Part shown: piece after piece, positions 10,253-58,177 of the stretch | Numbering within the stretch: the first letter of the stretch is position 1 | How the letters are laid out: each line of letters starts with the position of its first letter | Assembly (NCBI GenBank): GCA_031266915.1 | Contig: JAISAB010000002.1 | Span: 76,738 to 140,737, forward strand | DNA: 64,000 bases | Direction of reading: 5' to 3' | DNA from: Rickettsiales bacterium | Lineage (GTDB): Bacteria > Pseudomonadota > Alphaproteobacteria > Rs-D84 | Notes under the pieces: model-generated | Seen by the model: only the letters and a program-made list of their open reading frames with translations | Databases searched by the model: none | Told to the model about the DNA's origin: nothing | Made by a program: the position numbers and the translations under genes

Positions 10253-10364
10253 ATTAGTAACTAGTGTATAGTGTTTAGTGCTTAGTTAATAGTGCATAGT
10301 GATTTAATTATCAGGTTATAACACTATAAACTATACACTAATCACTATGCACTACTAACTTGTT

Positions 10365-10877
10365 TTATTCCATCCCTCGTTCGGCGGCGATTTGCGCCGC
10401 CATCTGCGATAATCGGTCCTCGGTCGCGTTGCCGCCGTCGCCCCCGCCGGCGGTGTGCGCCGGAACATATACCTTTTTCGCGGGACTTGGCAGCCAGATT
10501 GTCGGATTGCCGGCCTGTTCGATTATAAATCTGTCCATGTTGTGGCTGTGCGGAAACGTGCGGCACAGAAACATGTTCTCGGGTTCCAACCGGCCGCCCC
10601 AAAGCAGCGGCACGCGCAGGCGCAAGGATAAATTGTCGGGCATCCTGCGTCCCGTTATCAGACCCATGAATTCGTCCTGGGATAAATTCATAAAGGCCAA
10701 ATCTTCCACAGAATCAGTCAGCGAGCGCATGAATTCCCGGCGCAGATTCTTGTACCGGACGAACCAGTCAGGGGCCACGGAGGACACCGCCGCAGCAAAT
10801 TCCATTACCGGCAAATCATCCATGAAAAGGTCGGCAAGGCGTTTTTCCGCGGCTGCCTTTCTTATCTGCGCATTCAT
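10365..10877 (-). CDS. hypothetical protein
   Basis: 170-aa ORF with coding-like composition, followed downstream (10262-10360) by a tagt-rich palindromic hairpin. No family recognised. Confidence 0.5.
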   Translation of the reverse strand: MNAQIRKAAAEKRLADLFMDDLPVMEFAAAVSSVAPDWFVRYKNLRREFMRSLTDSVEDLAFMNLSQDEFMGLITGRRMPDNLSLRLRVPLLWGGRLEPENMFLCRTFPHSHNMDRFIIEQAGNPTIWLPSPAKKVYVPAHTAGGGDGGNATEDRLSQMAAQIAAERGME

Positions 10878-12525: not shown

Positions 12526-12569
12526 TTTATATATTTAAAATTTGCTCAATTAATAGAATATACTTTATT

Positions 12570-12650
12570 TTTTGGCTCCTAAAACTCAATATCAGGGTGA
12601 CGGCAAGCGATAAGAATGTTGAAAAGATACATTTTTGTCACTTGGGCGTT
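12570..12650. repeat. truncated copy of the MITE-like element (internal part only)
   Basis: The sequence aaaactcaatatcagggtgacggcaagcgataagaatgttgaaaagatacattttt matches the MITE internal/3' portion (..aaaacttcaagattcgtcata.. / ..tatgacggcaagagaaaagaatttcgaaaaaggtacatt..) and lies upstream of the autotransporter gene. Confidence 0.4.
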
Positions 12651-22381: not shown

Positions 22382-24175
22382 ATGTCAGACAACAAATATC
22401 CAATTGAACAGATTCGCCACAGCTTGGCGCATGTCTTGGCGGCAGCGGTTCAAAAATTACATCCGGATGTGAAATTCGGGGGCGGGCCCGCCATCGAGAA
22501 CGGCTTTTACTATGACTTTGACACGGAATACCGTTTTTCCGAATCGGATTTCGCGGCCATCGAAAAGGAAATGAAATCGCTGATTAAATCGGATGGCAGG
22601 TTCGTCCGCCGCGAGGTATCGTTGCCCGAAGCCAAAGAGATATTCAAAGACCAGCCATATAAAATGGAATGGCTGGGCGATATGGATGATGGAAAATGGA
22701 TAAGGGATGATGTAGATTCCATATCATCCATCATCCATCATCCATCATCCATTATATCCGTTTACACATTCCGCGACTTCACGGACCTATGCCGCGGGCC
22801 GCATGTGGAATCTTCCGCCGCGCTGCCGCGCGATTCGTTCAAGATTCGCAGCGTTGCCGGCGCGTACTGGAAGGGCGATTCGAAAAACAAAATGCTGCAG
22901 CGCATCTATGTCGACGCGTTCGCGACCGCGGTTGAGTTGGCGGAATTTCTAAAGATGCAGGAAGAGGCCGCCCAGCGCGACAACCGAAAACTGGGGCGCG
23001 AGATGGACCTGTTCCATTTCGAGCCCGACTATGCCCCGGGCGCCGTGTTCTGGCACGACAAGGGGTTCAGGATTTATCGCCGCCTGATAGACTACGTCCG
23101 CATGCGCCAGGAACAGGCGGGGTACCTGGAAATTTCGACTCCGTCAGTAATGGACCGCAGTTTGTGGGAAAAATCCGGCCACTGGGCCAAATACGGCGAG
23201 CATAATTATTCCGGCAAGACCCAGGATGGCAAGACCTTTTGCGTAAAACCGATGTCCTGTCCGGGCGGCATGCTGGTGTTCGGCCACGGCCAGGTGTCGT
23301 ACAAGGACCTGCCGATGTACGTGGCCGAATTCGGCAAGGTCAACAGGTACGAGGCGGCGGGCGGCCTGTCGGGCCTGATGCGCGTGCGCGAATTCACCCA
23401 GGACGACGCCCATATCTTCTGCACTGAAAATCAGCTGGAGGAAGAGGTCGTCAAAGTCCTGCGCTTTATCAAGGATATTTATGCCAAGTTCGGATTCGAC
23501 AAAATTTCGATGAAACTGGCGACGCGCAAGGAATCTGAATTCCGCATCGGCGACGACGCGATTTGGGACAAGGCCGAGGGCGCGCTGAAATCCGCGCTGG
23601 ATAAAAACGGAATCGAATATGAAATCGCAGAGGGCGACGCGGCGTTCTATGGCCCGAAGATTGATAACTATCTGAAAGATTCCATGGGCCGCGTATGGCA
23701 ATGCGGAACGGTTCAACTGGATATGAATCTGCCCCAGCGCTTTGATTTGTCCTATATCGGCGAAGACGGCGAAAAGCACCGCCCGATTATGCTGCACCGC
23801 GCGATGCTGGGGTCAATCGAACGCTTTATGGGAATCCTGCTGGAATCGACGGGGGGCAATCTGCCACTGTGGCTGTCGCCGGAACCGGTCGTCGTCACGC
23901 CGATTTCCGAAAAGTATCGGGAATACGCCGCGGAAGTCGTTGATATGCTGAAACACGCGGGCGTCCATGCCGCCGGCGATATGCGCGATGAAAAGGTCAA
24001 CTATAAAATCCGCGAACTGTCCCTGGCCAAGACGCCGGTTATCGCCGTTGTCGGCGAAAAGGAACGGGACGACAAGACCGTTACTCTGCGTCATTTGGGC
24101 AGCGAGAAACAGGAAACCGTTTCCCTGGACGCGTTTATAAATCAAATGGCGCAAGCCGTCCAAATGCCGGAGTAA
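22382..24175 (+). CDS. thrS: threonyl-tRNA synthetase (lacks N-terminal TGS domain; contains an in-frame palindromic insertion at ~22679-22757)
   Basis: The second N-terminal domain (HSLAHVLA), class II motifs (FRDFTDLCRGPH, GLMRVREFTQDDAHIF, GPKID, QCGTVQLD) and a C-terminal anticodon-binding domain are present. The protein begins at the position equivalent to E. coli residue ~70. Confidence 0.93.
   Translation: MSDNKYPIEQIRHSLAHVLAAAVQKLHPDVKFGGGPAIENGFYYDFDTEYRFSESDFAAIEKEMKSLIKSDGRFVRREVSLPEAKEIFKDQPYKMEWLGDMDDGKWIRDDVDSISSIIHHPSSIISVYTFRDFTDLCRGPHVESSAALPRDSFKIRSVAGAYWKGDSKNKMLQRIYVDAFATAVELAEFLKMQEEAAQRDNRKLGREMDLFHFEPDYAPGAVFWHDKGFRIYRRLIDYVRMRQEQAGYLEISTPSVMDRSLWEKSGHWAKYGEHNYSGKTQDGKTFCVKPMSCPGGMLVFGHGQVSYKDLPMYVAEFGKVNRYEAAGGLSGLMRVREFTQDDAHIFCTENQLEEEVVKVLRFIKDIYAKFGFDKISMKLATRKESEFRIGDDAIWDKAEGALKSALDKNGIEYEIAEGDAAFYGPKIDNYLKDSMGRVWQCGTVQLDMNLPQRFDLSYIGEDGEKHRPIMLHRAMLGSIERFMGILLESTGGNLPLWLSPEPVVVTPISEKYREYAAEVVDMLKHAGVHAAGDMRDEKVNYKIRELSLAKTPVIAVVGEKERDDKTVTLRHLGSEKQETVSLDAFINQMAQAVQMPE
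22679..22757. repeat. palindromic in-frame insertion inside thrS
   Basis: The arms gatatggatgatggaaaatggataagggatgatg...ccatatcatccatcatccatcatccatcatcc are complementary. It encodes ~16 extra residues (DDGKWIRDDVDSISSIIHHPSS) relative to E. coli ThrRS between the ...SIL and DMCRGPH equivalents. Confidence 0.55.
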
Positions 24176-24341: not shown

Positions 24342-24491
24342 ATGAAGATGAAAAAATTAATCGCGGTTATGGGATTATGTTCCCTGGTATTGGCGCTGGG
24401 CGCATGCTCGAGAACATGCGAGACCGAGCCGATTGTCGAGCAGAATCACAAACTGATTGTGCCGAAGAATTTCGGCAGCCAGCCGAAATAA
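24342..24491 (+). CDS. small putative lipoprotein (49 aa)
   Basis: MKMKKLIAVMGLCSLVLALGACSR has a lipobox LALGAC. The ORF is below the ORF-track size cutoff and is preceded by the RBS aaaagg. Confidence 0.4.
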   Translation: MKMKKLIAVMGLCSLVLALGACSRTCETEPIVEQNHKLIVPKNFGSQPK

Positions 24492-24543
24492 CCATTAGTA
24501 GTTAGTAACTAGTGGCTAGTTACTAACTACTAGCTACTAATGG
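24488..24543. repeat. tagt-rich perfect-like palindrome (hairpin)
   Basis: aaccattagtagttagtaactagtggctagttactaactactagctactaatggtt; this family is also at 10262-10360, 32262-32395 and 38190-38240. Confidence 0.5.
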
Positions 24544-24574
24544 TTTTTTGTGATACAATGGGCCCGAAGAACAA

Positions 24575-32242: not shown

Positions 32243-32261
32243 CAGTCAACCCAACTGATAA

Positions 32262-32395
32262 AATTAAAATAATCATTAGTCATTAGTTATTAGTGCTTAG
32301 TGATTAGTTGATAGTGCATAGTTAACTAGTTCACTAATAACTAAGCACTATGCACTATACACTAATGGTTATTGACTATGGACTAATGATTATTT
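32262..32395. repeat. tagt-rich imperfect palindrome (~130 bp)
   Basis: ttagtgcttagtgattagttgatagtgcatag...cactaataactaagcactatgcactatacactaatgg has complementary arms. Confidence 0.45.
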
Positions 32396-36369: not shown

Positions 36370-36440
36370 ACCGATATTTAGACACTAGTGACTGAAAAAA
36401 GTATGTTGTTTTTTGTTTGAAAACCTGCTAAAATGCGTAA

Positions 36441-36698
36441 CGAATCCATTGGGAATGGGTTCGGGGTCTCAAAAGCCCATAGATAAACGGCGATGTAAAA
36501 ATCGTTGTATCCCGCACAATAAAATCGCGGGCGAAAGCCCGATTTTTTTATTGAATCCTCGCCAGTTGGTCGGGGAAGCTGCCGGTATATAAAACAGCCT
36601 CGGCGCCATTTATGGCGACGGGCGAAAACTGGCGGGGTCATTTTTATCTATGATTTTTGAACTCCCCGACCGCCAATTCCCATGGCGGTCTTTTTATT
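36441..36698 (+). ncRNA. structured ~255-nt 5' leader with antiterminator/terminator alternative; candidate riboswitch or attenuator L1, homologous to 43325-43580
   Basis: A sigma70-like promoter (TTGTTT-17-TAAAAT, ~36406-36434) precedes it. The 5' block gaatccattgggaatgggttcggggtctcaaaagcccatagataaacggc is conserved. ggtcgggga (36578-) is complementary to tccccgacc, which overlaps the 5' arm of the terminator gaccgcca-N7-tggcggtc plus tttttatt. The terminator ends at the ATG of the downstream gene. Confidence 0.5.
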
Positions 36699-37154
36699 AT
36701 GAAAAAATGCCTGTGTATATTTTTATCGATTATATTTGTTGCGCCATCGCCGGCGGCAACATCGCGCGGTCGCGCAAATTACAATGTTGTCCAAAATCCG
36801 CGCGCAACGGCAACGAATATTCAATCCGCGCCTGTGTCGCAGGCGCCTGAATCGGAAACTATTGAACCGCAGAAAACAATCGCTGATATTGAAGATGCGG
36901 CTGTGTCCGCGGCATCTGAAGATAATTCGTCGCAGATTTTGGAATTAAACGCCGCTATTCGTGAACTGGAAGACGAAATGTTCAAAATGGATTCCGAATT
37001 GCGTCGTTGCGACCGCATGCGCCGCGACTGGCGCACGGCGACAATTATCGGCGGAATCGGCGTCGTTGGAACCGCCACCGGGGCGATTATTCAGGCAGCG
37101 CAAATATCCAAACAGAAAAAAGAAAATACAAAAACGGATGCGCCCCAGGAATGA
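36699..37154 (+). CDS. secreted coiled-coil protein with C-terminal hydrophobic anchor (paralog A)
   Basis: The signal peptide MKKCLCIFLSIIFVAPSPAA is followed by an acidic region, a coiled-coil (LELNAAIRELEDEMFKMDSELRRCDRMRR) and a Gly-zipper TM (TIIGGIGVVGTATGAIIQAA). Confidence 0.55.
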   Translation: MKKCLCIFLSIIFVAPSPAATSRGRANYNVVQNPRATATNIQSAPVSQAPESETIEPQKTIADIEDAAVSAASEDNSSQILELNAAIRELEDEMFKMDSELRRCDRMRRDWRTATIIGGIGVVGTATGAIIQAAQISKQKKENTKTDAPQE

Positions 37155-37510
37155 GAATCGCAACGGCATTTTTATTTTATTCGTTTTTTATCGGCGCGTG
37201 TCCGGCGGCGCATGATGTTCAGGTCCAAATGCTGGCCGCGCGATTGGAATCTTTGCAGTCGGAACGCGACCACAAAGCCGCGGAACTGCGCGATTGCGAA
37301 AAAAATGTCAAGGGATTCAAGGTGGCAGGTATTGCGACCCTATCCGCAACTGGCATCGGAATCGGCATAAATGTTGCCTTGGCAAGCAAACTGGCGGCGA
37401 CGAAATCCGGCGGTTCAAACGGTGCGCGCGGCGGTGCGGCGGCGGATATGCGTTCATCCGAACAGGTATCACAAGACAACGCGGATTTATTCGCGGAGCT
37501 TGGGATTTAA
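37151..37510 (+). CDS. secreted coiled-coil protein with C-terminal hydrophobic anchor (paralog B)
   Basis: MRIATAFLFYSFFIGACPAA, then a coiled-coil (LAARLESLQSERDHKAAELRDCEKNVK) and a Gly-zipper TM (VAGIATLSATGIGIGINVALA). The architecture matches the upstream gene, and the start overlaps its stop (ATGA). Confidence 0.5.
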   Translation: MRIATAFLFYSFFIGACPAAHDVQVQMLAARLESLQSERDHKAAELRDCEKNVKGFKVAGIATLSATGIGIGINVALASKLAATKSGGSNGARGGAAADMRSSEQVSQDNADLFAELGI

Positions 37511-37541
37511 CAAAACAACAACCAAACCAAAAGGAAAGAAC

Positions 37542-38111
37542 ATGAAAAACAAAATGATGATCGGCGCAATGGCGGCAATGCTGGCTGCAACATCCGCGAA
37601 TGCGTATAACCAGGCGGATAAAGACCGCTGTCTGGCGAATCCTGACAAAGTTGTGTGGGTGGAATCCAAGGGCGCATGCGTACCAAAAAATCCGTGCGAT
37701 GGGAAATATGATTATAAATATATAGCTTATTGTTCCGAAAAGTTCGGGTCTGTGGTTGTAGATAGTGTTGATACAGCGATAAATATGGTTAAATCGTTTC
37801 ATGCAACTTCAATGAACGTACCCTGTAATAAAGCAGCCTATGTAATTGATTCTGCCGCCGATGTCTCTTGTTTTACAGGACCATATAATGAGTATTTCGT
37901 ATATGCTTTTTCTGGAGTTATGTCGTCTGGTATTACAACCAATATACTAAATGAAGATATATCTTTTTGCAGAAAATATAACTGCGGGTATGACGTTTCT
38001 TACAAAAAAGTATTTCAATGCGATTGTACCAACAATGATGCCAATTATGACGGTATAAAAAAAGTAGAAAAAGTTGAATGCGGCGAGGGCTATTGTGAAG
38101 TAAAACGCTAA
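37542..38111 (+). CDS. cysteine-rich secreted protein
   Basis: Signal peptide MKNKMMIGAMAAMLAATSANA with an RBS aaaggaaag upstream, and 20 Cys in the mature part. The 3' half is AT-rich. Confidence 0.55.
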   Translation: MKNKMMIGAMAAMLAATSANAYNQADKDRCLANPDKVVWVESKGACVPKNPCDGKYDYKYIAYCSEKFGSVVVDSVDTAINMVKSFHATSMNVPCNKAAYVIDSAADVSCFTGPYNEYFVYAFSGVMSSGITTNILNEDISFCRKYNCGYDVSYKKVFQCDCTNNDANYDGIKKVEKVECGEGYCEVKR

Positions 38112-38538
38112 ACTTTTGTTTAGTTGGCTGGACGTTATAACCGAAAACAAACCCGCAGGCGCAAAGACTTGCTGGTTTGTTTTGATTAGGTTCAGGGACA
38201 GCGTATAGTCAATAGTCGTTAGTCTATAGTTAGCAGTTCAAATTGTCGCCGTCGCGAAACGATGCGGACAAAACCGCATGCTGCGGCGTCAAACTGTCTT
38301 GCCGTATTAATATATGCCTTCGCCAGTTTTCCTGACATCATGCGATTTTCTCTCGCATCGTGCGTCTGAATTTAATGAGCCCTGACCCTAGTAAAACAGT
38401 TGATATAAGACAATGCACCAATCATTATCGATTATTGACCAACGACTATTGACAATTTTCTGGCATTTTATGAATCACGGTTTCCCCAAATCCAACAAAC
38501 GTTTTATTTATACCTGGTTTTGTGATACAATTTATACT

Positions 38539-40022: not shown

Positions 40023-40098
40023 GGGTGCGTAGCTCAGTTGGTAGAGCAACTGACTCTTAATCAGTGGGTCTGGGGTTCGAATCCCCACGCGCCCACCA
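40023..40098 (+). tRNA. tRNA-Lys (anticodon CTT)
   Basis: The cloverleaf is acceptor gggtgcg/cgcgccc, D arm gctc-agttggta-gagc, anticodon arm actga-ctCTTaa-tcagt, T arm tgggg-ttcgaat-cccca, and an encoded CCA. Confidence 0.9.
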
Positions 40099-40109
40099 AT
40101 TTGAAACCG

Positions 40110-40215
40110 TTGGATTTCCGGCGGTTTTTCATTTAATTTGATTCAGTTATATTCACGAAAATGTTTGCTGTCAGGCGTTTTTTGTCCCGTTTTTGCCCCC
40201 GGGTGGTGTGAAAAT
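40110..40215. repeat. ~100-bp direct repeat, left copy (flanks AT-rich islet next to tRNA-Lys)
   Basis: ggcggtttttcatttaatttgattcagttatattcacgaaaatgtttgctgtcaggcgttttttgtcccgtttttgcccc...gtgtgaaaatggcgaatttc is about 85 percent identical to 41040-41145. Confidence 0.55.
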
Positions 40216-40472
40216 GGCGAATTTCTGCCGCATACAGCGTTTATTGTCGTGGGTTTGCCTTAGATTTGCTCTGTCCGCGTCTTAGAATAGCATAGAACAA
40301 ACAAGGGAGTTCATAAATGATATGAATACCATTGTTGGGCTGTTTTCTTATGCTTGCCTTATTCCGCGTGCAGTTCAAAGGCCTAATTCTGAAAATTCAC
40401 AAAATTTAGCCCCATTTCGAACATGATTTAAATAATGTATTTAATTTCTTTTTTTTGATATAATCACAACAT

Positions 40473-40955
40473 ATGCAAGCAAGGATTTGTACTATGACTA
40501 AGAAAAAAGATTTTGACACAGCGATTAAACAGATAAAAGAAAACACCAAAAGCAAAATCATAATTTCTAAAAAACTAGAAAAGGCTTGGGATGTTTCGCC
40601 ATTGGTTCCAACAGCGCAGCAAATGAAGTCATTCTTGGAAGAAATTATGTCAGTAAAAAATAAATTACAACAGAATATCGGTTCCATTGACCTGTCAAAA
40701 AAATCAAAAAATGCAGTATGGGGATTAAACGGCGGCGAACTGGTAAAGGATAAGGTTCCAGGTATTGAAGAAGATATGAAAAACTTGGACAAGTTGGTTA
40801 ATTCTTTGAATATTAAGTCGAATTCAAACGAGATTAGGTTCGTATTGGAAAAGATGACCTCGTTAGAACAAAGGGTCAGAGAACTGTTAATTGTGCAAAA
40901 TCAATCTCGTTTTCATAATTTCTTTCACGCAAATTTTCCTATTTTTGTAAGATAG
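40473..40955 (+). CDS. hypothetical protein on tRNA-Lys-adjacent AT-rich islet
   Basis: 160-aa ORF (alternative ATG at 40494). It is Lys/Asn-rich with low GC, and a -10-like gatataat lies just upstream. Confidence 0.45.
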   Translation: MQARICTMTKKKDFDTAIKQIKENTKSKIIISKKLEKAWDVSPLVPTAQQMKSFLEEIMSVKNKLQQNIGSIDLSKKSKNAVWGLNGGELVKDKVPGIEEDMKNLDKLVNSLNIKSNSNEIRFVLEKMTSLEQRVRELLIVQNQSRFHNFFHANFPIFVR

Positions 40956-41039
40956 TTTGTGTCGAAATTTTGAATTTGTCTTGCTAATCCTTGAAAATCG
41001 TCCCATATTCTCCAACATAAGATACAGCCGTCGCTACTT

Positions 41040-41145
41040 GCGGTGGTTTTTCATTTGATTCATTTATATTCACGAAAAGGTTTGTTGCAAGGCGTTTTTT
41101 GTCCCGTTTTTGCCCCAGAAAAGTGTGAAAATCAGCATTTCAGAA
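41040..41145. repeat. ~100-bp direct repeat, right copy
   Basis: ggtggtttttcatttgattcatttatattcacgaaaaggtttgttgcaaggcgttttttgtcccgtttttgccccagaaaagtgtgaaaatcagcatttc. Confidence 0.55.
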
Positions 41146-41194
41146 GTATTTCAGGTCATTGTTAATGAATTTAAGCTGAAATTATATGCCCTTG

Positions 41195-41392
41195 AAAACA
41201 ATCGTTCAACCGACAGGAATGTACCTTTATCGACATTCTTTTCACTTGCCGTCACCCCAGCCACCGCGGGGGTCCAATGTGTTTATCATACATGTATTGT
41301 TCACAGCTTGAATACAATGGATGCCGTCCTGCGACGTCATGACGAGTCTTGAGTTTTTGAGGCCAAAAAGGTACATTCCTGTCAGTTGAGCT
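41195..41392. mobile_element. MITE-like palindromic element, copy B (plus a solo terminal repeat at 41404-41422)
   Basis: The termini are cgttcaaccgacaggaatgtaccttt ... aaaaaggtacattcctgtcagttgagc. The interior is the reverse complement of the copy C interior (ggtccaatgtgtttatcata..gttcacagcttgaatacaatggat). It is followed by ccattcctgtcagctgaac. Confidence 0.6.
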
Positions 41393-41423
41393 ATTATATT
41401 AAAGCCATTCCTGTCAGCTGAAC

Positions 41424-42971
41424 TTATCGTATCGTATGATAAGTATTTCCCGAATAGTTGACATTTATCGCATTGCTGGCCGAACCATTGCCCAGGCTGG
41501 CGTAGCATACGGTTCCTGATGCGCTTTTTATATTTATGGATGGAATTGTGTTCTTGACAGCGTACAGAGGAATGATAAGACTTCCCGCGCGCAGGGTGGC
41601 GAATCCTGCGGCGCACATCTGCGCGCACCCACCGGCGTCCGTCTGCGAATACCCTGAATCGCAATCCCACGGGCAATTATTTCCGGTCACGCCTGCGCTG
41701 TTGCTATAACTGGAATTTGCCGGCTTGTTGGTGCAGTTGTTGCACGATGTCTGACCGGTCAGATTCTGATAGGTTCCCGCGGCGCACGCATCGCAGGAAT
41801 AGTGCCCGCTGCCGCCGGTATCGTATATCACCGTTCCGTCGTAAAGCGCCTCGCTGCCCGATACGCCGTAATGACCCGCAGGGCACGGAACGCACGAGTT
41901 AAGAAAGTCGGGGCCTTCTGGAATATCGACGGTGTAATATCCGCTGGCGCATTCGCCCCAATATCTCTTCTGGCAATTGTCGAAATTACTGCCGCCCCAC
42001 CAGCAAGTGCCGGATATGGAACTTTGTTCCGTCCAAAAGCCCGTTCCGGACCAATACCAGAAATTTCCCTTCGTATGGCAGTCGGTCGAATCATCAGAGC
42101 CAGAATCGGATGTGACTTTTGTGCTATTAGCCGCATGTCCCGGTATAAGGTCCTGACATGAATATCTGGCGGAACCATAAGAAATACCAGGACAGTAATA
42201 GCCTTGCTCGCACATGACACATTGCCCGTCAGACAGATAATATCCTTTGTCGCAGCTGACCGCGCAACCGGACGTCGCGCCCCAGGTATAGCACCCGCTG
42301 ACCCCGTTCTTGGTCGCGTTGCATGTCTGGGTGCCGTTGATTGTTCCGTTTGCAACGCTGCCGCAGCTGGCTGTCTGCGAAGTGTTGTACGTGCAGTCGC
42401 TGGTGCATGTGGCGACAGCGGGGCACGCGGTTCCGCCTGCGCAGGTGTATCCGCTGCCGTAATCCGAGCATGGCCGGCACAGCCTGGCATCCGAATTTGG
42501 GGTGCATATTGTCTGACTTGGGCTGGGCGCCATGTAGTATCCGGCTTCGCAAGTCTGCGGCACGCAAGCCCCCCAATCGTCGCCATAGGAACAGTTGTTG
42601 AAGCCGTAGTAGCTGCTGCAGTCGCCGACCAGGGTGATGCGGGATTGCTTTCCGACGCCGTTGGCTATCGCGCAGTTCTGCGATGGCGCCAAATTATCAC
42701 AACTGCATGTGTTGACGGCGCCTGGAACGCATCCTGCATTTTCTGGCCAGTCGCATATTTCCAGAGACCAATTCCAAAAAAGACCATCGGGGCAACTTAT
42801 TCTTTGATTAACAAAAGCCCCGCAAATATAAAGCGACTGACAGTCGTTGAAATCGGGAGTATAAACGGGATTTTCATCCACAAAAAACTTCTCCGAGCAG
42901 GCAGGCACTCCATAGGCCATATTGGTCGCGCATTGCACGCAAAATATGATGATAAATATAAATTTTCTCAA
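41424..42971 (-). CDS. large cysteine-rich secreted protein with Ephrin-receptor-like / VSP-like CxxC...GxY repeats
   Basis: It has a TTG start and the signal peptide MRKFIFIIIFCVQCATNMA. It contains ~70 Cys with repeated units (CVPCPAGHYGVSG; CDACAAGTYQNLTGQTSCNNC; CRPCSDYGSGYTCAGGTAC) that resemble eukaryotic GCC2/GCC3 (Ephrin-receptor-like) or Giardia VSP repeats. The antisense ORFs here are GC artefacts. Confidence 0.6.
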   Translation of the reverse strand: MRKFIFIIIFCVQCATNMAYGVPACSEKFFVDENPVYTPDFNDCQSLYICGAFVNQRISCPDGLFWNWSLEICDWPENAGCVPGAVNTCSCDNLAPSQNCAIANGVGKQSRITLVGDCSSYYGFNNCSYGDDWGACVPQTCEAGYYMAPSPSQTICTPNSDARLCRPCSDYGSGYTCAGGTACPAVATCTSDCTYNTSQTASCGSVANGTINGTQTCNATKNGVSGCYTWGATSGCAVSCDKGYYLSDGQCVMCEQGYYCPGISYGSARYSCQDLIPGHAANSTKVTSDSGSDDSTDCHTKGNFWYWSGTGFWTEQSSISGTCWWGGSNFDNCQKRYWGECASGYYTVDIPEGPDFLNSCVPCPAGHYGVSGSEALYDGTVIYDTGGSGHYSCDACAAGTYQNLTGQTSCNNCTNKPANSSYSNSAGVTGNNCPWDCDSGYSQTDAGGCAQMCAAGFATLRAGSLIIPLYAVKNTIPSINIKSASGTVCYASLGNGSASNAINVNYSGNTYHTIR

Positions 42972-42991
42972 TTTTTAACCAGCTAATTTAA

Positions 42992-43081
42992 ACGTCCCTT
43001 TGGATTAGGCAACGCTTCTGCTTTCAATAATCCCTGATTTCCGCTGCTTTCTCTCTCTACGTTTTGCCTAATCCAAAGGGA
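42992..43081. promoter_or_regulatory. 21-bp perfect inverted repeat in the divergent promoter region of the two Cys-rich genes
   Basis: aaacgtccctttggattaggc (42992-43012) pairs with gcctaatccaaagggacgttt (43061-43081). It lies ~20 nt upstream of the TTG start of the minus-strand gene and shares aatccaaaggga with the start of leader L2. Confidence 0.4.
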
Positions 43082-43324
43082 CGTTTGAATCAGGCATGGC
43101 AATATGCTTATTTACGTTTTGAATTATCTCGTATATTCATCTTTCTGTCAATGAAAAAAATGGCGTCTTTAGATATTTATATTCGGATTGTATTTCTGCA
43201 GGAGTATGTTTTGCAATCCTGGCGCGGCGAAACCATCACGAGCGGTGGTTATAAAATAGAGCATGGCCATAAAAATCAATTAATTTTTCTTTGAAAAAAT
43301 TTAGTTTTAGTTTACAATACATGT

Positions 43325-43580
43325 GAATCCAAAGGGATTTGGGTTCGGGGCCTTCAAAAAGCCCATATAAGAACGGCATTGTAAATGTCGAAATCCGCAT
43401 GATAAGACACGGCGCGGATGCGCCTTTTGTTTTATCATGAATGCCCCGCAAAGGTCGGGGGGCCGCCGGTTATGCAACAGGGTTATCCCAAAGGCCAGCG
43501 GGGTCATTTTCTTATATGATTTTTTGAACTCCCCGACCGCCATTTTCTTGGCGGTTTTTTATATAAAAAAAGGAAATCAT
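43325..43580 (+). ncRNA. structured ~255-nt 5' leader with antiterminator/terminator alternative, L2, homologous to 36441-36698
   Basis: A promoter TTGAAA-16-TACAAT (43291-43318) precedes it. The conserved 5' block is gaatccaaagggatttgggttcggggccttcaaaaagcccatataagaacggc. ggtcgggg (43455-) is complementary to ccccgacc, which overlaps the terminator gaccgcca-ttttctt-ggcggt plus tttttt (43533-43562). The RBS aaaggaaa and the ATG follow. Confidence 0.5.
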
Positions 43581-44642
43581 ATGAAAAAAACAATCCGCAT
43601 GTTATTCTTCCTGGCATGCGTCTTTTGCGCGCTGGACGCGCGCGCCGGATGCAAAGGCACCGAATGGACGTACAAGCGGAACAATCACGGCAACAACGGC
43701 AACGCCATAGGATGTGACTGCAGCGAGAAATCCAGCGGATACCGAATATACGAGCGCGGATACAACTCTAAAGCGTTTGTTGACGGCAACAAGACCAGAT
43801 GCAACTTTCCAAATCGCAGCTATTGCCATGATACCAGCGGCGCCCGCGACACGTGGGAGAACTGTACCGGAAAAATCATATATTCCGGAACTCCGTCAAG
43901 CCATGATTCCAGCGGTCTGGGGCATCAGATTCCGGCGGACGTTCTTTTCGAAGTGTCGTCGCTGCCGCTGAACAGCACGGCACGGCCGCACCTAAATGAC
44001 GGCGGCGACGAGAGCAACTGCAAACAGGACGGCAAAAATGGCGAGTGCGGATGGGTCGCATTTTGCAACAGCGGATTCGAATGGAATTCGACACACAAAA
44101 AGTGCGTTTGCCCCGCTGGCCGGGTCTCGTCTCCGGATGGCAAATCGTGCGTGACAATCGCCGAATGCGAATCGGATTCCAGCTATGAGGCAACGGACGG
44201 CGCCTGCATCACGTCGAAATGGTGCAGCCCGGAATGGAGGACCAGCTTCGACAACGCGCAACACGCGACGAAACTCGTCAACAACTGCGACGAATTCCGA
44301 TGCATAGACGGATACGGATTCAAATCGGCGTCGGACAAGTCCTGTGTGCCGGCCGAGGGCGACAAGTTCGGCGGCCAATACCCTGATTCGACAACCGGGA
44401 TTATGAAAAATTGCATGAAAACGCAAAAAGTGAGAATAACCAAAAGCGGCGATACTTCGGAATATTCGTGCGCAGAGGCCGATTATAAGGCGTCCGACGA
44501 CGAAATGAAGAAATGCTTTCGCTGCGAGGAAACCGAAGATTTCAAAAATTGCATAAAATTCCAAGGCAAAGACGGGATAAACGGAGTTTTGCTGAAATGT
44601 GCGAAATGTATGGAGTTAGACGCGATGCCGTGCTGGGAATAA
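43581..44642 (+). CDS. cysteine-rich secreted protein
   Basis: Signal peptide MKKTIRMLFFLACVFCALDARA, then ~40 Cys in 330 aa with EGF/TNFR-like spacing (CVCPAG, CNSGFEWNSTHKKC). Confidence 0.6.
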   Translation: MKKTIRMLFFLACVFCALDARAGCKGTEWTYKRNNHGNNGNAIGCDCSEKSSGYRIYERGYNSKAFVDGNKTRCNFPNRSYCHDTSGARDTWENCTGKIIYSGTPSSHDSSGLGHQIPADVLFEVSSLPLNSTARPHLNDGGDESNCKQDGKNGECGWVAFCNSGFEWNSTHKKCVCPAGRVSSPDGKSCVTIAECESDSSYEATDGACITSKWCSPEWRTSFDNAQHATKLVNNCDEFRCIDGYGFKSASDKSCVPAEGDKFGGQYPDSTTGIMKNCMKTQKVRITKSGDTSEYSCAEADYKASDDEMKKCFRCEETEDFKNCIKFQGKDGINGVLLKCAKCMELDAMPCWE

Positions 44643-44648
44643 AATAAG

Positions 44649-44838
44649 GCTCAACTGACAGGAATGCACCTTTTTTGCCCCAAAACTTCAAGATTCGTCA
44701 TACCGGCGCCAGCTGGTATCCATTGTATTCAAGCTGTGAACAATACCCGTATGATAAACACATTGGACCCCGTCCTGCGACGGGGTGACGCCAAGTGAGA
44801 AGAATATCGAAAAAGGTACATTCCTATCGGTTGAGCGA
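44649..44838. mobile_element. MITE-like palindromic element, copy C
   Basis: The termini are gctcaactgacaggaatgcaccttttttg ... aaaaaggtacattcctatcggttgagc. The interior has caagattcgtcataccgg and the same sequence as the copy B interior in inverted orientation. Confidence 0.6.
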
Positions 44839-44901
44839 AAATAAATATAAGTCGATTTCGAACTTTTTTAATGCGAATTTGGATTTAGTATTATAGAATA
44901 T

Positions 44902-45444
44902 ATGAATCAAAGAGAATCCGTAATGACACGAATAATAGCAGGTTTTGGCGGTGTTGGCAAAACGACACTTGCGAAAAAATATAAAAATGTTTTGGATTTA
45001 GAGTCTACTCCATATAAATATCTTATTGATAATTATAAAAGATTGGATTCCGAGGCCATAAAAGGCGAAGGAATCACTGACAAAAAGCTACATCCTGATT
45101 TTCCAAATAATTATATTTCTGCAATAAAAAACAATATGGATAAATACGATTATATCTTGGTGTGGTGTCACCCGGAAGAGATATTGCCTCACTTTGATAG
45201 AAATGGTATTGACTATGAGCTTTTTATTCCGACCAGAGATGCGTTGGATGAATATCGGCAACGATTTATCAACCGTGGCAACACGGAAGAATATGTAAAT
45301 CGTGTCAGCAGTAAAGAAGGTTATGACGTGCGCTTGCCACAATTTCAAGCCACTGGAAAACCAATCGTATTTTTAAAAAGTGGCGAGACATTGGAAAGTT
45401 ATTTCAAGAACAATAGTGATTATCCGCCGCTGTTGGCTGCTTGA
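44902..45444 (+). CDS. small P-loop NTPase with NB-ARC-like Walker A (GFGGVGKTTLA)
   Basis: MTRIIAGFGGVGKTTLAKKY, a Walker B-like hydrophobic stretch plus acidic residues (YDYILVWCHPEE), 180 aa, and an AT-rich islet location. Confidence 0.5.
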   Translation: MNQRESVMTRIIAGFGGVGKTTLAKKYKNVLDLESTPYKYLIDNYKRLDSEAIKGEGITDKKLHPDFPNNYISAIKNNMDKYDYILVWCHPEEILPHFDRNGIDYELFIPTRDALDEYRQRFINRGNTEEYVNRVSSKEGYDVRLPQFQATGKPIVFLKSGETLESYFKNNSDYPPLLAA

Positions 45445-45618
45445 TATTATTTATAAAGATTCGAATGTTTTGTATGTAAAGCGCGACAGACGGGGGAATT
45501 CCCGTGCGCCTGCACAAGCCGACAGCAATCAAATCCAGTTCGTGACGCATGATGTTCAAATATTGATTTCTGCCGATACCGCGGTATAATAACTGTGTAA
45601 AAACGCGAGGAACATGAA

Positions 45619-46515
45619 ATGGCATTCGATAAATTTCTTCAAGAAGACAAAGCGGCGCTGTACATAGAAGGTCGATCCGAGGCTTGGGCGCATCCGTTCG
45701 ACGATTGGAGGGAATCGTTAAAAATCGCCTTCGCCATTTTGATTTACTGCGCCGAGAACGGATTAAAAATCTCATACGCTGGATTGGGAAGAATATCCAA
45801 TATGCCGGAACAATATACCACGACGGGCCGTCAGGCCCTGGGCATTGTCGCCGGATATATGTTGGAATGCATAGGCAGATATTGTCAAACTTTGCCGAGC
45901 AAGCCCAGGCTGACTTCGTTATGTGTTTCGTATGTTTCTGGATTTCCGGGCGGCAGGTACTACGAGTTTTTCGACCCGGAAAACGCGAATAAGTCGCTTG
46001 AGCGGCAAAAGCAAATTCTACTTGAACTGTTCAGGGTTTTGCAAGAATACGACTGGGGCGATGTAAAGCACGACTTGGGTGTAAATATTGACGGTATGGC
46101 GGAAAAGATTAATGCTGAGACGTTTGCCCAGGACAATTTTTATATTCCCAAAAATCAGCGGGACTTAGACGAAAAAGTCGCACAATTAAAGGAAGAGGCA
46201 AAGTACGATCCGGATAAAATAGAGGAAATCGACGCGGATGCGAAAGAGGAAAGCAGAAAGTTGTCGGGGGACGACAGACGATTCGAACAAGATACGGATT
46301 TAAAAAAATTCGAGGCGTATTTTGTGGCCGGATTCATATCAGTTTGGTCTGTCGCCGTATTGGTGATTTTATGCTCGGATTACTGGTCTGGCGGCGAGAA
46401 TATCCCGACGTCGGTATACATCACGCTTTTCGCGACGACTTTGGTGGAAGTTTTCGGGTTGCAATGGCTGGTGCTGAAGCACCTGTTTCCGAACGGTCAA
46501 AAGTCTAAAAAATAG
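45619..46515 (+). CDS. hypothetical protein with C-terminal double TM segment
   Basis: 298 aa. The soluble N-domain is followed by an acidic coiled region (EEAKYDPDKIEEIDADAKEESRK) and two C-terminal TM helices (FVAGFISVWSVAVLVILC; VYITLFATTLVEVFGLQWLVL). It lies on the same AT-rich islet as the P-loop gene. Confidence 0.5.
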   Translation: MAFDKFLQEDKAALYIEGRSEAWAHPFDDWRESLKIAFAILIYCAENGLKISYAGLGRISNMPEQYTTTGRQALGIVAGYMLECIGRYCQTLPSKPRLTSLCVSYVSGFPGGRYYEFFDPENANKSLERQKQILLELFRVLQEYDWGDVKHDLGVNIDGMAEKINAETFAQDNFYIPKNQRDLDEKVAQLKEEAKYDPDKIEEIDADAKEESRKLSGDDRRFEQDTDLKKFEAYFVAGFISVWSVAVLVILCSDYWSGGENIPTSVYITLFATTLVEVFGLQWLVLKHLFPNGQKSKK

Positions 46516-46559
46516 CACGACCGTTTCAGTGCGGCGCTGGTGAAACAAGGGCTTGGAAA

Positions 46560-47021
46560 ATGAAATTAAAAATAAAGTTCGCATCAGATTATGTCCGACA
46601 GATTTATCAGAAATCCGAAAAACGCGGAATAGAATGGTCGCGCGGGGATTCCGGAATAGACCTGCGCTCGGTCGAAGATGATTTAATATTACAGCCCGGT
46701 GAAACAAAGATTATTGATTCCGGCGTTGCGTGCGAAATATCCGATTGCGACGGCGATTGTTATGAAATCCAATTGCGGCCGCGCTCTGGTTTAACCAAGG
46801 CCGGCATATTGGGGCATTTTGGAACAATCGATTTCGCCTATCGCGGATTCATCGGAATGAGCGTCACGAATATTTCCGGCGCACCGTTTGAAATCAAAAA
46901 GGGTGAAAGAATTAAACAAATGATAGTCGCCCCTATACTGAAACCGGTGATTGAATTCTGCGATGATTTATCCAATACCGAACGCGGCGCCGGCGGATTC
47001 GGTTCGACAGGGCGGGCGTGA
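46560..47021 (+). CDS. dut: dUTP diphosphatase
   Basis: All five dUTPase motifs are present (GDSGIDLRS; RPRSGL; GTIDFAYRG; ERI.Q; TERGAGGFGSTG). Confidence 0.9.
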   Translation: MKLKIKFASDYVRQIYQKSEKRGIEWSRGDSGIDLRSVEDDLILQPGETKIIDSGVACEISDCDGDCYEIQLRPRSGLTKAGILGHFGTIDFAYRGFIGMSVTNISGAPFEIKKGERIKQMIVAPILKPVIEFCDDLSNTERGAGGFGSTGRA

Positions 47022-47108
47022 CGGCGCAAGGTCCCATGTCGATAAATAAAAAATATGGAAATATAATATACTGATAAAACCAATATGGTTTTTTCTGCAA
47101 TCAGAATC

Positions 47109-47140
47109 GCTGTATATGCATGATTTCATGCATATACAGC
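47109..47140 (+). terminator. perfect 14-bp-stem hairpin between convergent dut and atl, followed by a T-run
   Basis: gctgtatatgcatga-tttc-atgcatatacagc, then cgttttt. Confidence 0.6.
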
Positions 47141-47146
47141 CGTTTT

Positions 47147-47512
47147 TCAAAATACCAGCGGCGCGTCTTTCAGGTCTTCGGGACGGATGGATATTTCGGT
47201 CGCGCCGGACCATTGATGTTGTTCCAATTTCACTTTTTTGTCGCGCGTGAACGCGACGCCCTCGGCACGCAGGGACTTGTACTGCTCGTTCGTCCAGCCG
47301 GACGAATCGGGGCACAAACTGCCGTCCTTGAACACGACGCGATGCCACGGCAGATGCCACATTTTCTGATTATTGGATGCGAATCCGACGAATCGCGCCA
47401 TGCGCGGCCGGCCAATCATGCGCGCGATTTGGCCATAGGTCGCGACCTTTCCTGACGGGATTTTTTCCACGATGTCATAAACTTGCTCGTTAAATGTTTT
47501 CATAATTTTCAT
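47147..47512 (-). CDS. atl: alkyltransferase-like protein (MGMT-fold DNA-binding domain without the active-site Cys)
   Basis: The HTH region YGQIARMIGRPRMARFVG and PWHRVV, with Trp replacing Cys in the PCHRV motif, are the hallmark of ATL proteins (E. coli YbaZ). Confidence 0.75.
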   Translation of the reverse strand: MKIMKTFNEQVYDIVEKIPSGKVATYGQIARMIGRPRMARFVGFASNNQKMWHLPWHRVVFKDGSLCPDSSGWTNEQYKSLRAEGVAFTRDKKVKLEQHQWSGATEISIRPEDLKDAPLVF

Positions 47513-47634
47513 TCTATAGCATAAAACATTTTATTCAACGATAATCTTTCCAAGCGTCGCATCCCAGAATCGAGACAGGGCAGTCGTCCAAATAATCGCG
47601 GATTCAAAAGCGCGTGAAACAAACTATCAATCAT

Positions 47635-47666
47635 CTGTATATGCATGATTTAGTGCATATACAGAC
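47635..47666. repeat. hairpin of the same family as 47109-47140
   Basis: tctgtatatgca-tgatttag-tgcatatacaga, on the other side of atl. Confidence 0.5.
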
Positions 47667-47669
47667 GAT

Positions 47670-48506
47670 TTAACTATTCCTGTTATGACCGTTGCAGTAA
47701 CAAATTCCGTGCGCCGTCAGAATATTTTTCAGGGTTTCTTTGGACCGTCCGACTGTGCGCGAAAGCTCGCTTATATTATCGTACAGCGCCGCTTTTTCGA
47801 TAATGACCTGTTCTTCCTGCTCAGATATGGTTTTCCGTTTGCCTCCTGTCCGAGTTTTGAAAATATTGAGGGTTTTGTTCCAGCAGTACAGAGTTCGGTA
47901 ATTCAGACCGTGTTTTTTCGACACGACCATGACCCCTTTGCAATTTCCATGAAAGATATTGTAATCGCGAACTTCCCGCAGAATGACGGCGCGCTGCGCG
48001 GACGGAATCGCCTTGGGATTCTTTTTCGCTTTGAATATATGCAGCGGCTCGTTCCATTCGGAAATGGTTACGTTATTGATGTTGAAGCGGCGGCTGGCTG
48101 CCATAATGCCGTTGCGGGCGGCATATGACAGAATCGCTATTTTTTCGGAATGCGTGTAAGTTTTGCGTTTTTTGACATCCAGTATTTTCAAAATGCCGTT
48201 GTGGTATTTTAATTTATTCAGATTAAATTCTGGATTTTCCCGCGCAATATCGGAAAGGCTTTTATTGTTTTCTTTCGCCCGGATTAAAAGTTGTTCGATT
48301 TTTTTCGCGTTTTTGCCGTCTTGTTCCAGTTTCTGCAAATAATCCGGGTCGGATTTGAAACGTTTGTTCCAATACTTTACGGATTTATAACTGTATTCGG
48401 TATAGTGGCTGGCGACGTAGGTCAGCGGCTGTCCCGCCGCTTTTGCCTGGGCCAGCAGGTCTTTTAATTTAACAAGCTGTTCGTATGTCAAAGTATTATC
48501 GGTCAT
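47670..48506 (-). CDS. transposase-related protein with two HTH domains (possible IS630/Tc1-type or IS3-orfA-type N-terminal remnant; no DDE domain)
   Basis: HTH-like segments (SEKIAILSYAARNGIMAASRRFNINNVTISEW; ISEQEEQVIIEKAALYDNISELSRTVGRSKETLKNIL) are present. The gene is AT-rich, with no catalytic domain downstream. Confidence 0.4.
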   Translation of the reverse strand: MTDNTLTYEQLVKLKDLLAQAKAAGQPLTYVASHYTEYSYKSVKYWNKRFKSDPDYLQKLEQDGKNAKKIEQLLIRAKENNKSLSDIARENPEFNLNKLKYHNGILKILDVKKRKTYTHSEKIAILSYAARNGIMAASRRFNINNVTISEWNEPLHIFKAKKNPKAIPSAQRAVILREVRDYNIFHGNCKGVMVVSKKHGLNYRTLYCWNKTLNIFKTRTGGKRKTISEQEEQVIIEKAALYDNISELSRTVGRSKETLKNILTAHGICYCNGHNRNS

Positions 48507-48811
48507 AATTGTATCCTATTGATTTATACACCGTATTATAATTGACTTTAATGATATTTGTCAAATAAAAAATAACTATAAAATATTAACATCGGGGCTT
48601 GTCAAATTCGCGCGCGCGGCGGCGGAATTCAACAATCCCGGAATTCGGCCGGCGAATTGCCGCCATAGTTTTTTACAGATACGCCGGTATGCGATAAAAA
48701 TCGCCGTATGCGGCGAATTCGGCTTTATTCCTAGGAAATCAAACCGGGCGGCGAATCGTCGAAAGTGCGATACAATGGCTGACGCTGCAAAAGCAAAAAA
48801 AGGAGACATAA

Positions 48812-57727: not shown

Positions 57728-58177
57728 ATGGTTTTGACAGATTTCAAGAATTTTCCGCATGTTGGAAAGATTTTGGGAATAGATTGGGGCGCGCGGCGCA
57801 TCGGGCTGGCGATTTCCGACGCGGGTCGGGAATTTTTCTTTGTCCGTCCGATAATGGAAAATAAACCGCGGCCGGCAAACGCGGCGGCCGATGTCGCCGC
57901 CGTGGCCCGGGCAGAGGGGGTCGCGGGCATTGTCGTCGGACTGCCGCTGCGCGGGGACGGCTGCGAATCTGATACTACGCGGGCCGTGCGCCGGTTCGCC
58001 GATGAGTTGGCGTCCATAATCGATTTGCCGATTGTTTTCATCAACGAAAACCTGACCAGCGTCGAGGCCCAAGAAAGGCAGAAGGCAAAAGGCAAAAGGC
58101 AGAAGTATATCGATTCCGAGAGTGCAAGGGTTATACTGGAAAACGCCGCGGCGATGATTCGTCGTAGTGCGAAATAA
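57728..58177 (+). CDS. ruvX: YqgF/RuvC-like putative pre-16S rRNA nuclease
   Basis: ILGIDWGARRIGLAISD, VVGLPL and ENLTSVEA motifs are present. Confidence 0.85.
   Translation: MVLTDFKNFPHVGKILGIDWGARRIGLAISDAGREFFFVRPIMENKPRPANAAADVAAVARAEGVAGIVVGLPLRGDGCESDTTRAVRRFADELASIIDLPIVFINENLTSVEAQERQKAKGKRQKYIDSESARVILENAAAMIRRSAK

Follow-up and report, generated by a model that had tools for sequence, protein, structure and literature searches.

A family of short, palindromic, transposase-less repeats is present in the genome of an uncultured alphaproteobacterium, as confirmed here in a 64-kb window (the whole stretch of DNA analyzed). The family is MITE-like and had not been described before; elements of its kind are well known. 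Two full copies, B and C, form an inverted bracket around a divergent pair of genes for Cys-rich proteins. On balance, we favor the view that the family resides at gene 3′ ends, that B and C are probably independent insertions, and that the gene pair is accessory by way of a variable region beside tRNA-Lys. The original prediction held the arrangement to be consistent with B and C mobilizing or recombining the 3.2-kb cassette between them. That more exciting claim, of MITEs mobilizing surface-protein genes, has been removed, and the main value of the analysis is one of annotation: it defines a MITE-like family that is found in a lineage of uncultured Alphaproteobacteria and also on two other metagenome contigs. 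The family also accounts for odd assembly and ORF-end behavior around the elements.

The host MAG is labeled 'Rickettsiales bacterium' (locus tags LBJ73_). Its TatC is 70-85% identical to those of many MAGs labeled Alphaproteobacteria and, judged from such sequence matches, its relatives appear to be Alphaproteobacteria of gut type and not Rickettsia.

Architecture and occurrence of the elements

The window, 64 kb of a 151-kb contig, contains three full copies, one decayed copy and one solo end. All of the repeats named in the original prediction were found, with coordinates that agree to within a few bases. Copy A (2810-3044, plus strand) is complete at 235 nt, carries an additional hairpin in its interior, and was matched by nhmmer at 2809-3046 (E 1e-48). 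Copy B (41204-41391, minus strand) is a full element downstream of the gene for the 515-aa Cys-rich protein, and copy C (44649-44836, plus strand) is a full element 3′ of the gene for the 353-aa Cys-rich protein. The solo terminal repeat, GTTCAGCTGACAGGAATGGC, lies at 41404-41423 on the minus strand. Copy D had been described as truncated. It was matched by nhmmer at 12595-12648 (E 9e-8). Its full extent is 12544-12647 (plus strand), about 104 nt, and both ends are present (left end GCTCAATTAATAGAATATAC, degenerate; right end CGCCCAAGTGACAAAAATGTATCTTTT), so that it represents a short element that has decayed. It lies between a 721-aa ORF (stop at 12525) and a 952-aa ORF (start at 12718). The latter, at 12718-15576, had been called an autotransporter gene, a label for which we found no autotransporter Pfam match at E ≤ 0.01.

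The predicted terminal inverted repeats are present, but they measure 26-27 bp rather than 28. The terminal repeat GCTCAACTGACAGGAATGTACCTTTT has four matches in the window at ≤3 mismatches, compared to 0.00 expected from 100 shuffles. Once one indel is allowed, seven ends are seen in the window, and three further ends occur on metagenome contigs L042 and L043; the chance expectation for these ends is 0. In the element consensus, the end GCTCAACTGACAGGAATGTACCTTTT is followed by a hairpin, GTCATACCGGC. The proposed internal inverted module was also recovered: segments 41311-41344 and 44757-44790 match directly, even though B and C themselves are inverted, and the family model matches both strands of B and both strands of C. 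These two observations imply that the whole element is an imperfect palindrome. A long hairpin is predicted for every full copy (z-scores -8.5, -5.7 and -9.0), and the internal hairpins are GC-rich.

Copy length ranges from 104 to 235 nt, with full elements of about 190-235 nt. Within the elements there is no self-contained ORF, and only spurious read-through ORFs overlap B. All copies in the window are intergenic or at gene ends, within segments of about 40% GC. A prokaryotic MITE has been defined as an element of <500 bp with no coding capacity and terminal inverted repeats of ~4-30 bp (PMC10969869). The elements here are likewise <500 bp and non-coding, have terminal inverted repeats, occupy AT-rich intergenic sites and form a stable stem-loop, features given for MITEs in the same source. 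The term MITE-like thus stands, as the elements are short, non-coding and present in several copies within the window, with 26-27-bp terminal inverted repeats, AT-rich intergenic locations, stable hairpins and ends that recur on other contigs. No Rfam family covers them.

No DDE transposase is encoded within the 64-kb window; the nearest transposase-like match there is a 278-aa multi-HTH protein with weak matches to HTH_28 and HTH_Tnp_1. An autonomous IS carrying the element's ends was likewise not found in the window, and plasmids and viral contigs gave no match. Hence, we infer transposition from architecture alone, and the elements would owe their origin to a transposase acting on their ends.

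Target-site duplications had been suggested as a check. None is consistently present around either B or C, and none surrounds the B-to-C unit. Possible duplications appear only when 1 nt is added to each end, namely a 7-nt AAAATAA for C and TTA for A. For B and the L043 copy, direct repeats at the flanks were looked for and none was found, and TA…TA flanks of the Correia type were not seen at the copies. Target duplications are known to decay in old MITE copies (PMC10969869).

Elements with the same ends and different interiors occur on the two metagenome contigs, L043 (full element at 830-1029) and L042. These two solitary elements were all that the metagenome scan yielded, with no MITE pair, in a limited search space. 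They adjoin FtsK/HAD and SPOR/DAC genes, which are housekeeping rather than surface-protein genes. No other entry of the protein collection exceeds 76% identity to the FtsK of L042, and the window itself encodes no FtsK for comparison with it. Among FtsK relatives we found no empty site for the L042 element; gene order differs. A scan of species-representative genomes with the internal core TGACGSCAAGNGANAAGAAT gave 40 matches in unrelated taxa, about 35 being expected by chance, and nhmmer identified no element around any of the 40. This absence holds for core TGACGSCAAGNGANAAGAAT, which is specific to the subfamily of this MAG and is lacking in L043; TCAACYGAYAGGAATGYACCTTT is an alternative query for host range in these genomes. 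A literature search for the terminal-repeat string returned only unrelated primers. Separately, a Logan contig break inside C (44753/44762) was considered as proof of further copies and rejected, because these contigs also break in unique sequence. Logan contigs followed for sequence beyond the window proved to lie inside it.

Element ends and stop codons

In four cases the distance between an element end and a stop codon is 0-6 nt, and once the stop falls inside the end. A minus-strand gene at 3046-3738 (a gene call made in L051) ends in a TAA (3046-3048) that is 1 nt away from the right end of A. The solo end directly abuts (0 nt) the TAA stop (41424-41426) of the 515-aa gene, and C begins 6 nt past the TAA at 44640-44642 that terminates the 353-aa gene. 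On L042, the TGA stop of the HAD gene is located within the terminal repeat. Overall, TAA is found 0-1 nt outside 6 of 12 ends, compared to a background of 4.8% (binomial P = 9e-6). Both this value and the adjacency to stop codons are post hoc and come from 12 ends only. The terminal repeat itself includes a TGA that can be in frame (CAAC-TGA-CAGG). With TAA often just outside the end and TGA within the repeat, ORFs entering an element stop at or just before it.

Placement at gene 3′ ends is a tendency rather than an absolute rule. The L043 element is flanked on both sides by the starts of divergently oriented genes, and D is upstream of a gene. The coincidence of ends and stop codons is a modest regularity; if it proves genome-wide, it would inform target choice by, or selection on, MITE insertions.

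These features suggest how the bracket could have formed. The elements would be non-autonomous MITE-like palindromes of about 190-235 bp, in an uncultured alphaproteobacterium, that insert into, or are tolerated only in, AT-rich DNA at gene 3′ ends. With stop codons adjoining element ends, a divergent pair such as the two Cys-rich genes would acquire an inverted bracket automatically; B and C probably represent two old, independent insertions, one behind each gene.

The Cys-rich gene pair and its variable region

The 515-aa protein is encoded by cys515 (41424-42971, minus strand; TTG start; annotated by NCBI as 485 aa, MDR1337609.1) and contains CBM_14 chitin-binding and Ephrin_rec_like domains. 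The 353-aa protein, a secreted protein or lipoprotein, is encoded by cys353 (43581-44642, plus strand; MDR1337610.1). It matches no Pfam family and belongs to a rare one: 1.84 billion representatives include just 14 homologs of it, all distant. That both products are Cys-rich was borne out (46/515 = 8.9% and 28/353 = 7.9%), and both N-termini are signal-peptide-like. BLASTP detected no similarity between the two proteins, indicating that they are not paralogs, and the idea that the locus arose by inverted duplication of a gene-plus-MITE module was rejected on this basis. GC content is 53.5% for cys515 and 52.7% for cys353. These values (53%) are core-gene-like, whereas neighboring island genes range from 33 to 47%. 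Proteins of the window are singletons at 90% identity.

Between the genes lies a divergent regulatory region (42972-43580), with a 30-nt inverted repeat in the 5′UTR of cys515 and three occurrences of AATCCAAAGGGA. A structured leader of ~255 nt precedes cys353 and consists of an sRNA-Xcc1-like domain followed by a terminator hairpin. Such sRNA-Xcc1-like leaders with terminators are seen at 36569-36678 and 43453-43546.

The gene pair had been predicted to be accessory, with the B-to-C cassette as the variable unit. The first part holds, in that the pair is absent from L044, but the unit that varies is an 8.7-kb region (40099-48811) extending from the 3′ side of tRNA-Lys(CTT) (40023-40098, plus strand) to lip182. 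This region has no counterpart in L044. It contains orf160, B, both Cys-rich genes, C, a P-loop 180-aa gene, a 298-aa gene, dut, ogt and the 278-aa HTH gene (hth278). L044, the only relative locus that spans the interval, lacks everything from tRNA-Lys to hth278. In its place, at 12.2-15.6 kb of L044 (corresponding to 40.1-48.8 kb of the window), other genes lie 3′ of an inverted tRNA-Lys(CTT). On the conserved sides, TatC and LysM-M23 are found in relatives, and lip182, h150, p529 and p432 in L044. The contigs of two closer relatives (L046 and L048) end at tRNA-Lys. Gene content thus varies directly 3′ of a tRNA gene, as in a tRNA-linked island. No integrase family match was obtained in the window, and BLAST of the tRNA flank revealed no repeat of the tRNA 3′ end, only a 64-nt repeat at 41053-41116, downstream of the tRNA. 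The only direct repeat in the region (40116-40215 and 41038-41132) surrounds one small ORF. On the reading favored here, the accessory nature of the gene pair comes from its place inside the variable region at tRNA-Lys, and not from any movement by MITEs.

When aligned as an inverted pair, B (41202-41391) and C (44649-44838) are identical at 159 of 190 positions (83.7%), the longest stretch without a mismatch being 29 nt. No repeat is common to their outer flanks, …GAAAACAAT and AAAATAAAT…. The claim that B and C mobilize or recombine the cassette is not supported, given this 16% divergence, the absence of a duplication and of a transposase in the window, and the 8.7-kb size of the variable unit. 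It is also countered by a second accessory insertion (36370-38412), which has the same 5′ leader and no MITE, by L052, the locus of the best cys515 homolog in another genome, where no element lies within 10 kb, and by the metagenome copies beside housekeeping genes.

These data bear on several alternatives. A composite MITE-flanked transposon, in which a transposase supplied in trans acted on the outer ends of B and C to bring in the two-gene cassette, would explain why two inverted copies flank genes, and is consistent with the rarity of the cys353 family and the absence of the region from a relative. There is precedent in the MITE-flanked integrons of Acinetobacter (PMC10969869), but copies in known examples are identical rather than 84% identical, and the outer flanks here, GCCCTTGAAAACAAT and AAAATAAATATAAGT, have no common duplication. 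Core-like GC next to AT-richer island genes, a variable region of 8.7 rather than 3.6 kb, the element-free L052 locus and the lack of a transposase in the window all argue against this origin, and other copies abut stop codons equally, yet form no brackets; we regard it as unlikely. A variant, which we consider very unlikely, casts B and C as the eroded termini of a former MITE-flanked unit, by which genes for eukaryote-like adhesins (CBM14 chitin-binding and ephrin-receptor-like repeats) reached the tRNA-Lys island of an uncultured alphaproteobacterial symbiont; the family would then spread between bacterial hosts, with stop codons (TAA, TGA) in the termini allowing harmless docking at gene 3′ ends. 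Recombination is a different matter. MITEs are known recombination hotspots (PMC10969869), and the 29-nt exact run in inverted copies could let B × C exchange flip the cassette, or other copies delete it, thereby generating variation in surface-protein genes. However, inversion would not switch expression, as the two promoters would turn with the segment, copies of 190 nt that are 84% identical make a poor RecA substrate, and contigs L001 and L055, from Logan data of the same sample, agree with the orientation in the window. We deem this scenario highly improbable.

A further possibility concerns function rather than movement and is compatible with a MITE origin. The hairpins may have been exapted at gene 3′ ends, as terminators or as barriers to RNase III or 3′-exonucleases, to tune the upstream gene. 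Folding is very stable, element ends abut stops, and in an alignment of B, C, L043 and A, 6 of 47 predicted pairs keep pairing despite two-sided changes, although the terminal-repeat stems are nearly invariant and hence uninformative on structural selection. A T-rich tract, GATTGTTTTC, follows the B hairpin on the transcript strand, but the tail after C on the cys353 strand is A-rich, and a scan for terminators picks out a single hairpin in the element interior, a weak one at 44700-44719. Correia and ERIC elements do affect mRNA processing (PMC10969869). The L043 and D copies, which speak against this role, are positioned upstream of genes. Any effect of the elements on mRNA 3′ ends would be deduced from these features, and we view exaptation as possible but doubtful. 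Independent insertion of B and C, within a region that varies for other reasons, thus remains our preferred reading, and we infer it from their divergence and flanks.

Comparison with known systems

Correia elements of Neisseria (CREE/NEMIS) have terminal inverted repeats of about 26 bp and, as a defining feature, a TA target duplication. Like them, the elements described here are small, non-coding palindromes that lie in intergenic DNA near gene ends, can give hairpin transcripts and may supply regulatory or stop signals through their ends (PMC10969869). Unlike Correia elements, they show no TA duplication, are 190-235 bp in length and have GC-rich internal hairpins, a comparison made by description only.

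For RPE (Rickettsia palindromic elements), the likeness is that of palindromes in genomes labeled Rickettsiales that can contribute to ORF ends. RPE are typically in-frame inside ORFs and about 100-150 bp long, whereas copies here are intergenic or at the very 3′ end, a distinction again drawn from description. For RUP, an IS630-type partner and TA duplication are known, neither of which was seen here. ERIC/IRU and RUP/BOX/SPRITE MITEs are imperfect palindromes in transcribed intergenic DNA, and their insertion at 3′ ends can alter mRNA stability (PMC10969869). As described, they are of the same palindromic kind as our elements, in other hosts.

MITE pairs bracket accessory genes in class 1 integrons of Acinetobacter and in the icm/dot region of Coxiella (QMITE2); in Acinetobacter, the two MITEs of an integron do not differ from each other, and the pair recurs around other cargo in several species (PMC10969869). 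Here, in contrast, the copies are 16% diverged, the unit has no target duplication and no second instance was found in the limited space searched. The region itself, although without an integrase or a tRNA 3′-end repeat, resembles tRNA-linked genomic islands: variable genes, AT-rich ones included, lie directly 3′ of the tRNA, and assemblies of relatives break at that tRNA.

Copies of the repeat, their ends and fold

A repeat search of the window returned an inverted pair of 190 nt, 84% complementary (41202-41391 versus 44649-44838). A profile made from copies A, B and C of the MITE-like repeat matched all three with E values within 1e-48 to 1e-62 (A, 2809-3045, plus strand; B, 41203-41392, minus; C, 44649-44837, plus) and gave a partial match at 12595-12648 (E 9e-8). 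At ≤3 mismatches, the window contains four matches to the terminal repeat GCTCAACTGACAGGAATGTACCTTTT, compared to none in 100 shuffles; seven ends are found once one indel is permitted. A solo end on the minus strand (41404-41423) was placed by the profile search and by reading of the sequence. On this evidence, the repeats described in the original prediction exist. The copy that it called truncated (D, 12544-12647) is also real, but is short and decayed, with both ends kept. Copies A, B, C and D have the sub-terminal block GTGACGGCAAGNGANAAGAATNTCGA in common.

The full copies are imperfect palindromes along their whole length, and the profile matches both strands of B and C. The predicted internal inverted module was confirmed, as 41311-41344 and 44757-44790 match in direct orientation even though B and C are inverted. 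When the full copies are folded as single strands, the terminal repeats pair to close one long stem, and two or three GC-rich hairpins form inside it (–76.7, –75.3 and –94.9 kcal/mol; z = –8.5, –5.7 and –9.0, respectively). When B, C, A and a copy from a metagenome contig (L043) are aligned, the terminal stems are nearly unchanging and hence carry no information on structure; 6 of the 47 predicted pairs still pair despite changes on both sides.

Several ends lie at stop codons. The minus-strand gene 3046-3738 has its TAA stop 1 nt from the right end of A, the 515-aa Cys-rich gene (cys515; 41424-42971, minus) has its TAA stop directly against the solo end, and C starts 6 nt past the TAA stop of the 353-aa Cys-rich gene (cys353; 43581-44642, plus). 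Overall, 6 of 12 ends have a TAA 0-1 nt beyond them, compared to a 4.8% background in the AT-rich stretches of the window (binomial 9e-6, post hoc). TAA occurs at both ends only in copy A, in inverted form (TAA...TTA), and so looks less like a duplication than like a terminal-repeat extension or target preference. At the flanks of the element copies, no consistent target-site duplication was seen.

Two contigs were recovered when metagenomes were scanned with the terminal repeat. In L043, a complete element (830-1029) shares the ends and the GTCATACCGGC hairpin with the window copies, the rest of its interior being different; it sits between two divergently transcribed genes, with SPOR and DAC genes nearby. 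In L042, the element is cut by the contig start and adjoined by HAD and FtsK genes, and the TGA stop of the HAD gene is the TGA within the repeat (CAAC-TGA-CAGG). Nothing else in the protein collection exceeds 76% identity to the FtsK fragment, which is ∼60% identical to other alphaproteobacterial FtsK; the 64-kb window encodes no FtsK. A genome-collection scan with the internal core, a subfamily-specific pattern, gave chance matches only, and no copies occur in ∼57 kb of sequence from four relatives defined by their TatC (77-85% identical).

A second, different kind of repeat also occurs in this genome: long hairpins in intergenic DNA, with arms built of tandemly repeated oligomers whose unit (TAGTGNT-type, GGAAC-type, ATGGATG-type or AAGGCAG tandem) differs by site. 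These lie at 10253-10370, 24486-24549 and 32254-32395; 7972-8116 and 8214-8281; 22682-22752; and 18636-18681 and 58074-58105. The PBP-RecJ spacer is just 40-90 nt in relatives, which marks the hairpin at 32.3 kb as an insertion. Between ybeY and lnt (7552-9666), the GGAAC-repeat hairpin (7972-8116) keeps the frame open by chance, so that the two genes read as a single ORF of 704 aa; a Logan contig ends inside this repeat, at 8029. For the 952-aa ORF at 12718-15576, originally labelled an autotransporter, Pfam gives no autotransporter match at E ≤ 0.01 and only a weak Bactofilin-type match.

The Cys-rich gene pair and its leader

The cys515 product matches the NCBI entry MDR1337609.1 ('MAG: chitin binding domain-containing protein [Rickettsiales bacterium]') at 100% identity; that entry lies on a contig of 151,421 bp. 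At 90% identity, each of the 10 window proteins tested is a singleton or clusters only with itself. Both Cys-rich proteins (8.9% Cys in the 515-aa and 7.9% in the 353-aa protein) have signal-peptide-like N-termini, and there is no similarity between them. The larger carries CBM_14 and Ephrin_rec_like domains; the smaller has no family in Pfam or NCBIfam and only 14 homologs, all distant, in 1.84 billion representatives. No element lies within 10 kb of the best 515-aa homolog (35% identity). Both genes have a GC content of 53%, as in core genes; several neighbours, including orf160 and a P-loop 180-aa gene, are at 33-37%.

A conserved leader of ∼280 nt (77% identity) precedes two unrelated secreted-protein genes, cys353 (leader 43290-43580) and the gene starting at 36699 (leader 36420-36698), and is not seen in relatives' loci. 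Both copies contain full-length matches to Rfam sRNA-Xcc1 (36569-36678, 40 bits; 43453-43546, 37.4 bits) that fall below the gathering score of 53. The leader fold has a z-score of –6.8, and an inner stem shows compensatory differences between copies. A terminator hairpin sits immediately ahead of the RBS, and its 5' arm overlaps the outer-stem 3' strand of the sRNA-Xcc1-like domain, CCCCGACC. This layout resembles that of an ON-type riboswitch and may deserve follow-up. The divergent promoter region has three copies of the 12-mer AATCCAAAGGGA (42995-43006, minus; 43070-43081, plus; 43326-43337, plus), compared to 0.49 expected in the whole window (≤1 mismatch); the motif may be an operator. 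Two of these copies make up the arms of an inverted repeat of 30 nt (42983-43012/43064-43093), likely in the cys515 5'UTR, and the third opens the cys353 leader.

Extent of the variable region

Gene order in relatives is RecJ-LolA-M23-TatB-TatC-LysM/M23. tRNA-Lys(CTT) follows directly in one relative (L048) and after a small NUDIX gene in another (L046), and both contigs stop there. In a third (L044, GCA_031555055.1), orthologs of lip182, h150, p529 and p432 come next. The Cys-rich pair is absent from L044, as the idea of a variably present cassette would have it, but what is missing is everything from tRNA-Lys to lip182 (40.1-48.8 kb), and hence the accessory unit is the whole 8.7-kb tRNA-adjacent region rather than the B-to-C interval. 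In L044 (12152-15628), the tRNA-Lys and adjoining variable segment are inverted relative to 40023-48811, with SodC, Tag, a 126-aa gene and alginate lyase 3' of the tRNA, where the window has dut, ogt and the Cys-rich pair. The 8.7-kb region lacks an integrase, and the tRNA-Lys 3' end is not repeated in it.

Within this region, a direct repeat of ∼90-100 nt (40116-40215 and 41038-41132; 87% identity), each copy opened by a terminator-like hairpin, flanks the AT-rich orf160 (33.5% GC) immediately 3' of tRNA-Lys; it is not found in relatives' loci. The 30-nt palindrome CTGTATATGCATGATTTCATGCATATACAG lies on either side of the methyltransferase gene ogt (47110-47139, 47635-47664). A second accessory insertion, of 2 kb (36370-38412), separates TatC from LysM/M23, which are adjacent in four of four relatives. 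Among its contents are genes for small secreted proteins, one of 189 aa with 6.3% Cys; the insertion shares the cys353 5' leader and contains no MITE.

Origin of the bracket

The original prediction read the arrangement as consistent with mobilisation or recombination, by B and C, of a 3.2-kb cassette containing the Cys-rich pair. B and C agree at 83.7% of positions and their longest exact match is 29 nt, whereas known MITE-flanked units have identical MITEs, which recur with different cargo (PMC10969869). The B-to-C unit has no duplication common to both flanks, and no transposase is encoded in the window. A composite transposon is therefore unlikely, and, given also that the variable unit is 8.7 kb, mobilisation of the cassette by B and C is not supported.

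The most parsimonious account consists of four parts. The family is MITE-like and non-autonomous, and a transposase presumably mobilises it in trans; it would land, or be tolerated, at extreme gene 3' ends; and two old insertions, each behind one of two divergently transcribed genes, would have produced the B/C bracket. Finally, the hairpins possibly have an additional role in 3'-end formation or mRNA stability, to which a terminator scan lends weak backing. A literature search gave no match to the terminal repeat, and the family is a new one of a known bacterial MITE kind. The element works like bacterial MITEs of the Correia, ERIC or RUP type, a likeness of kind.
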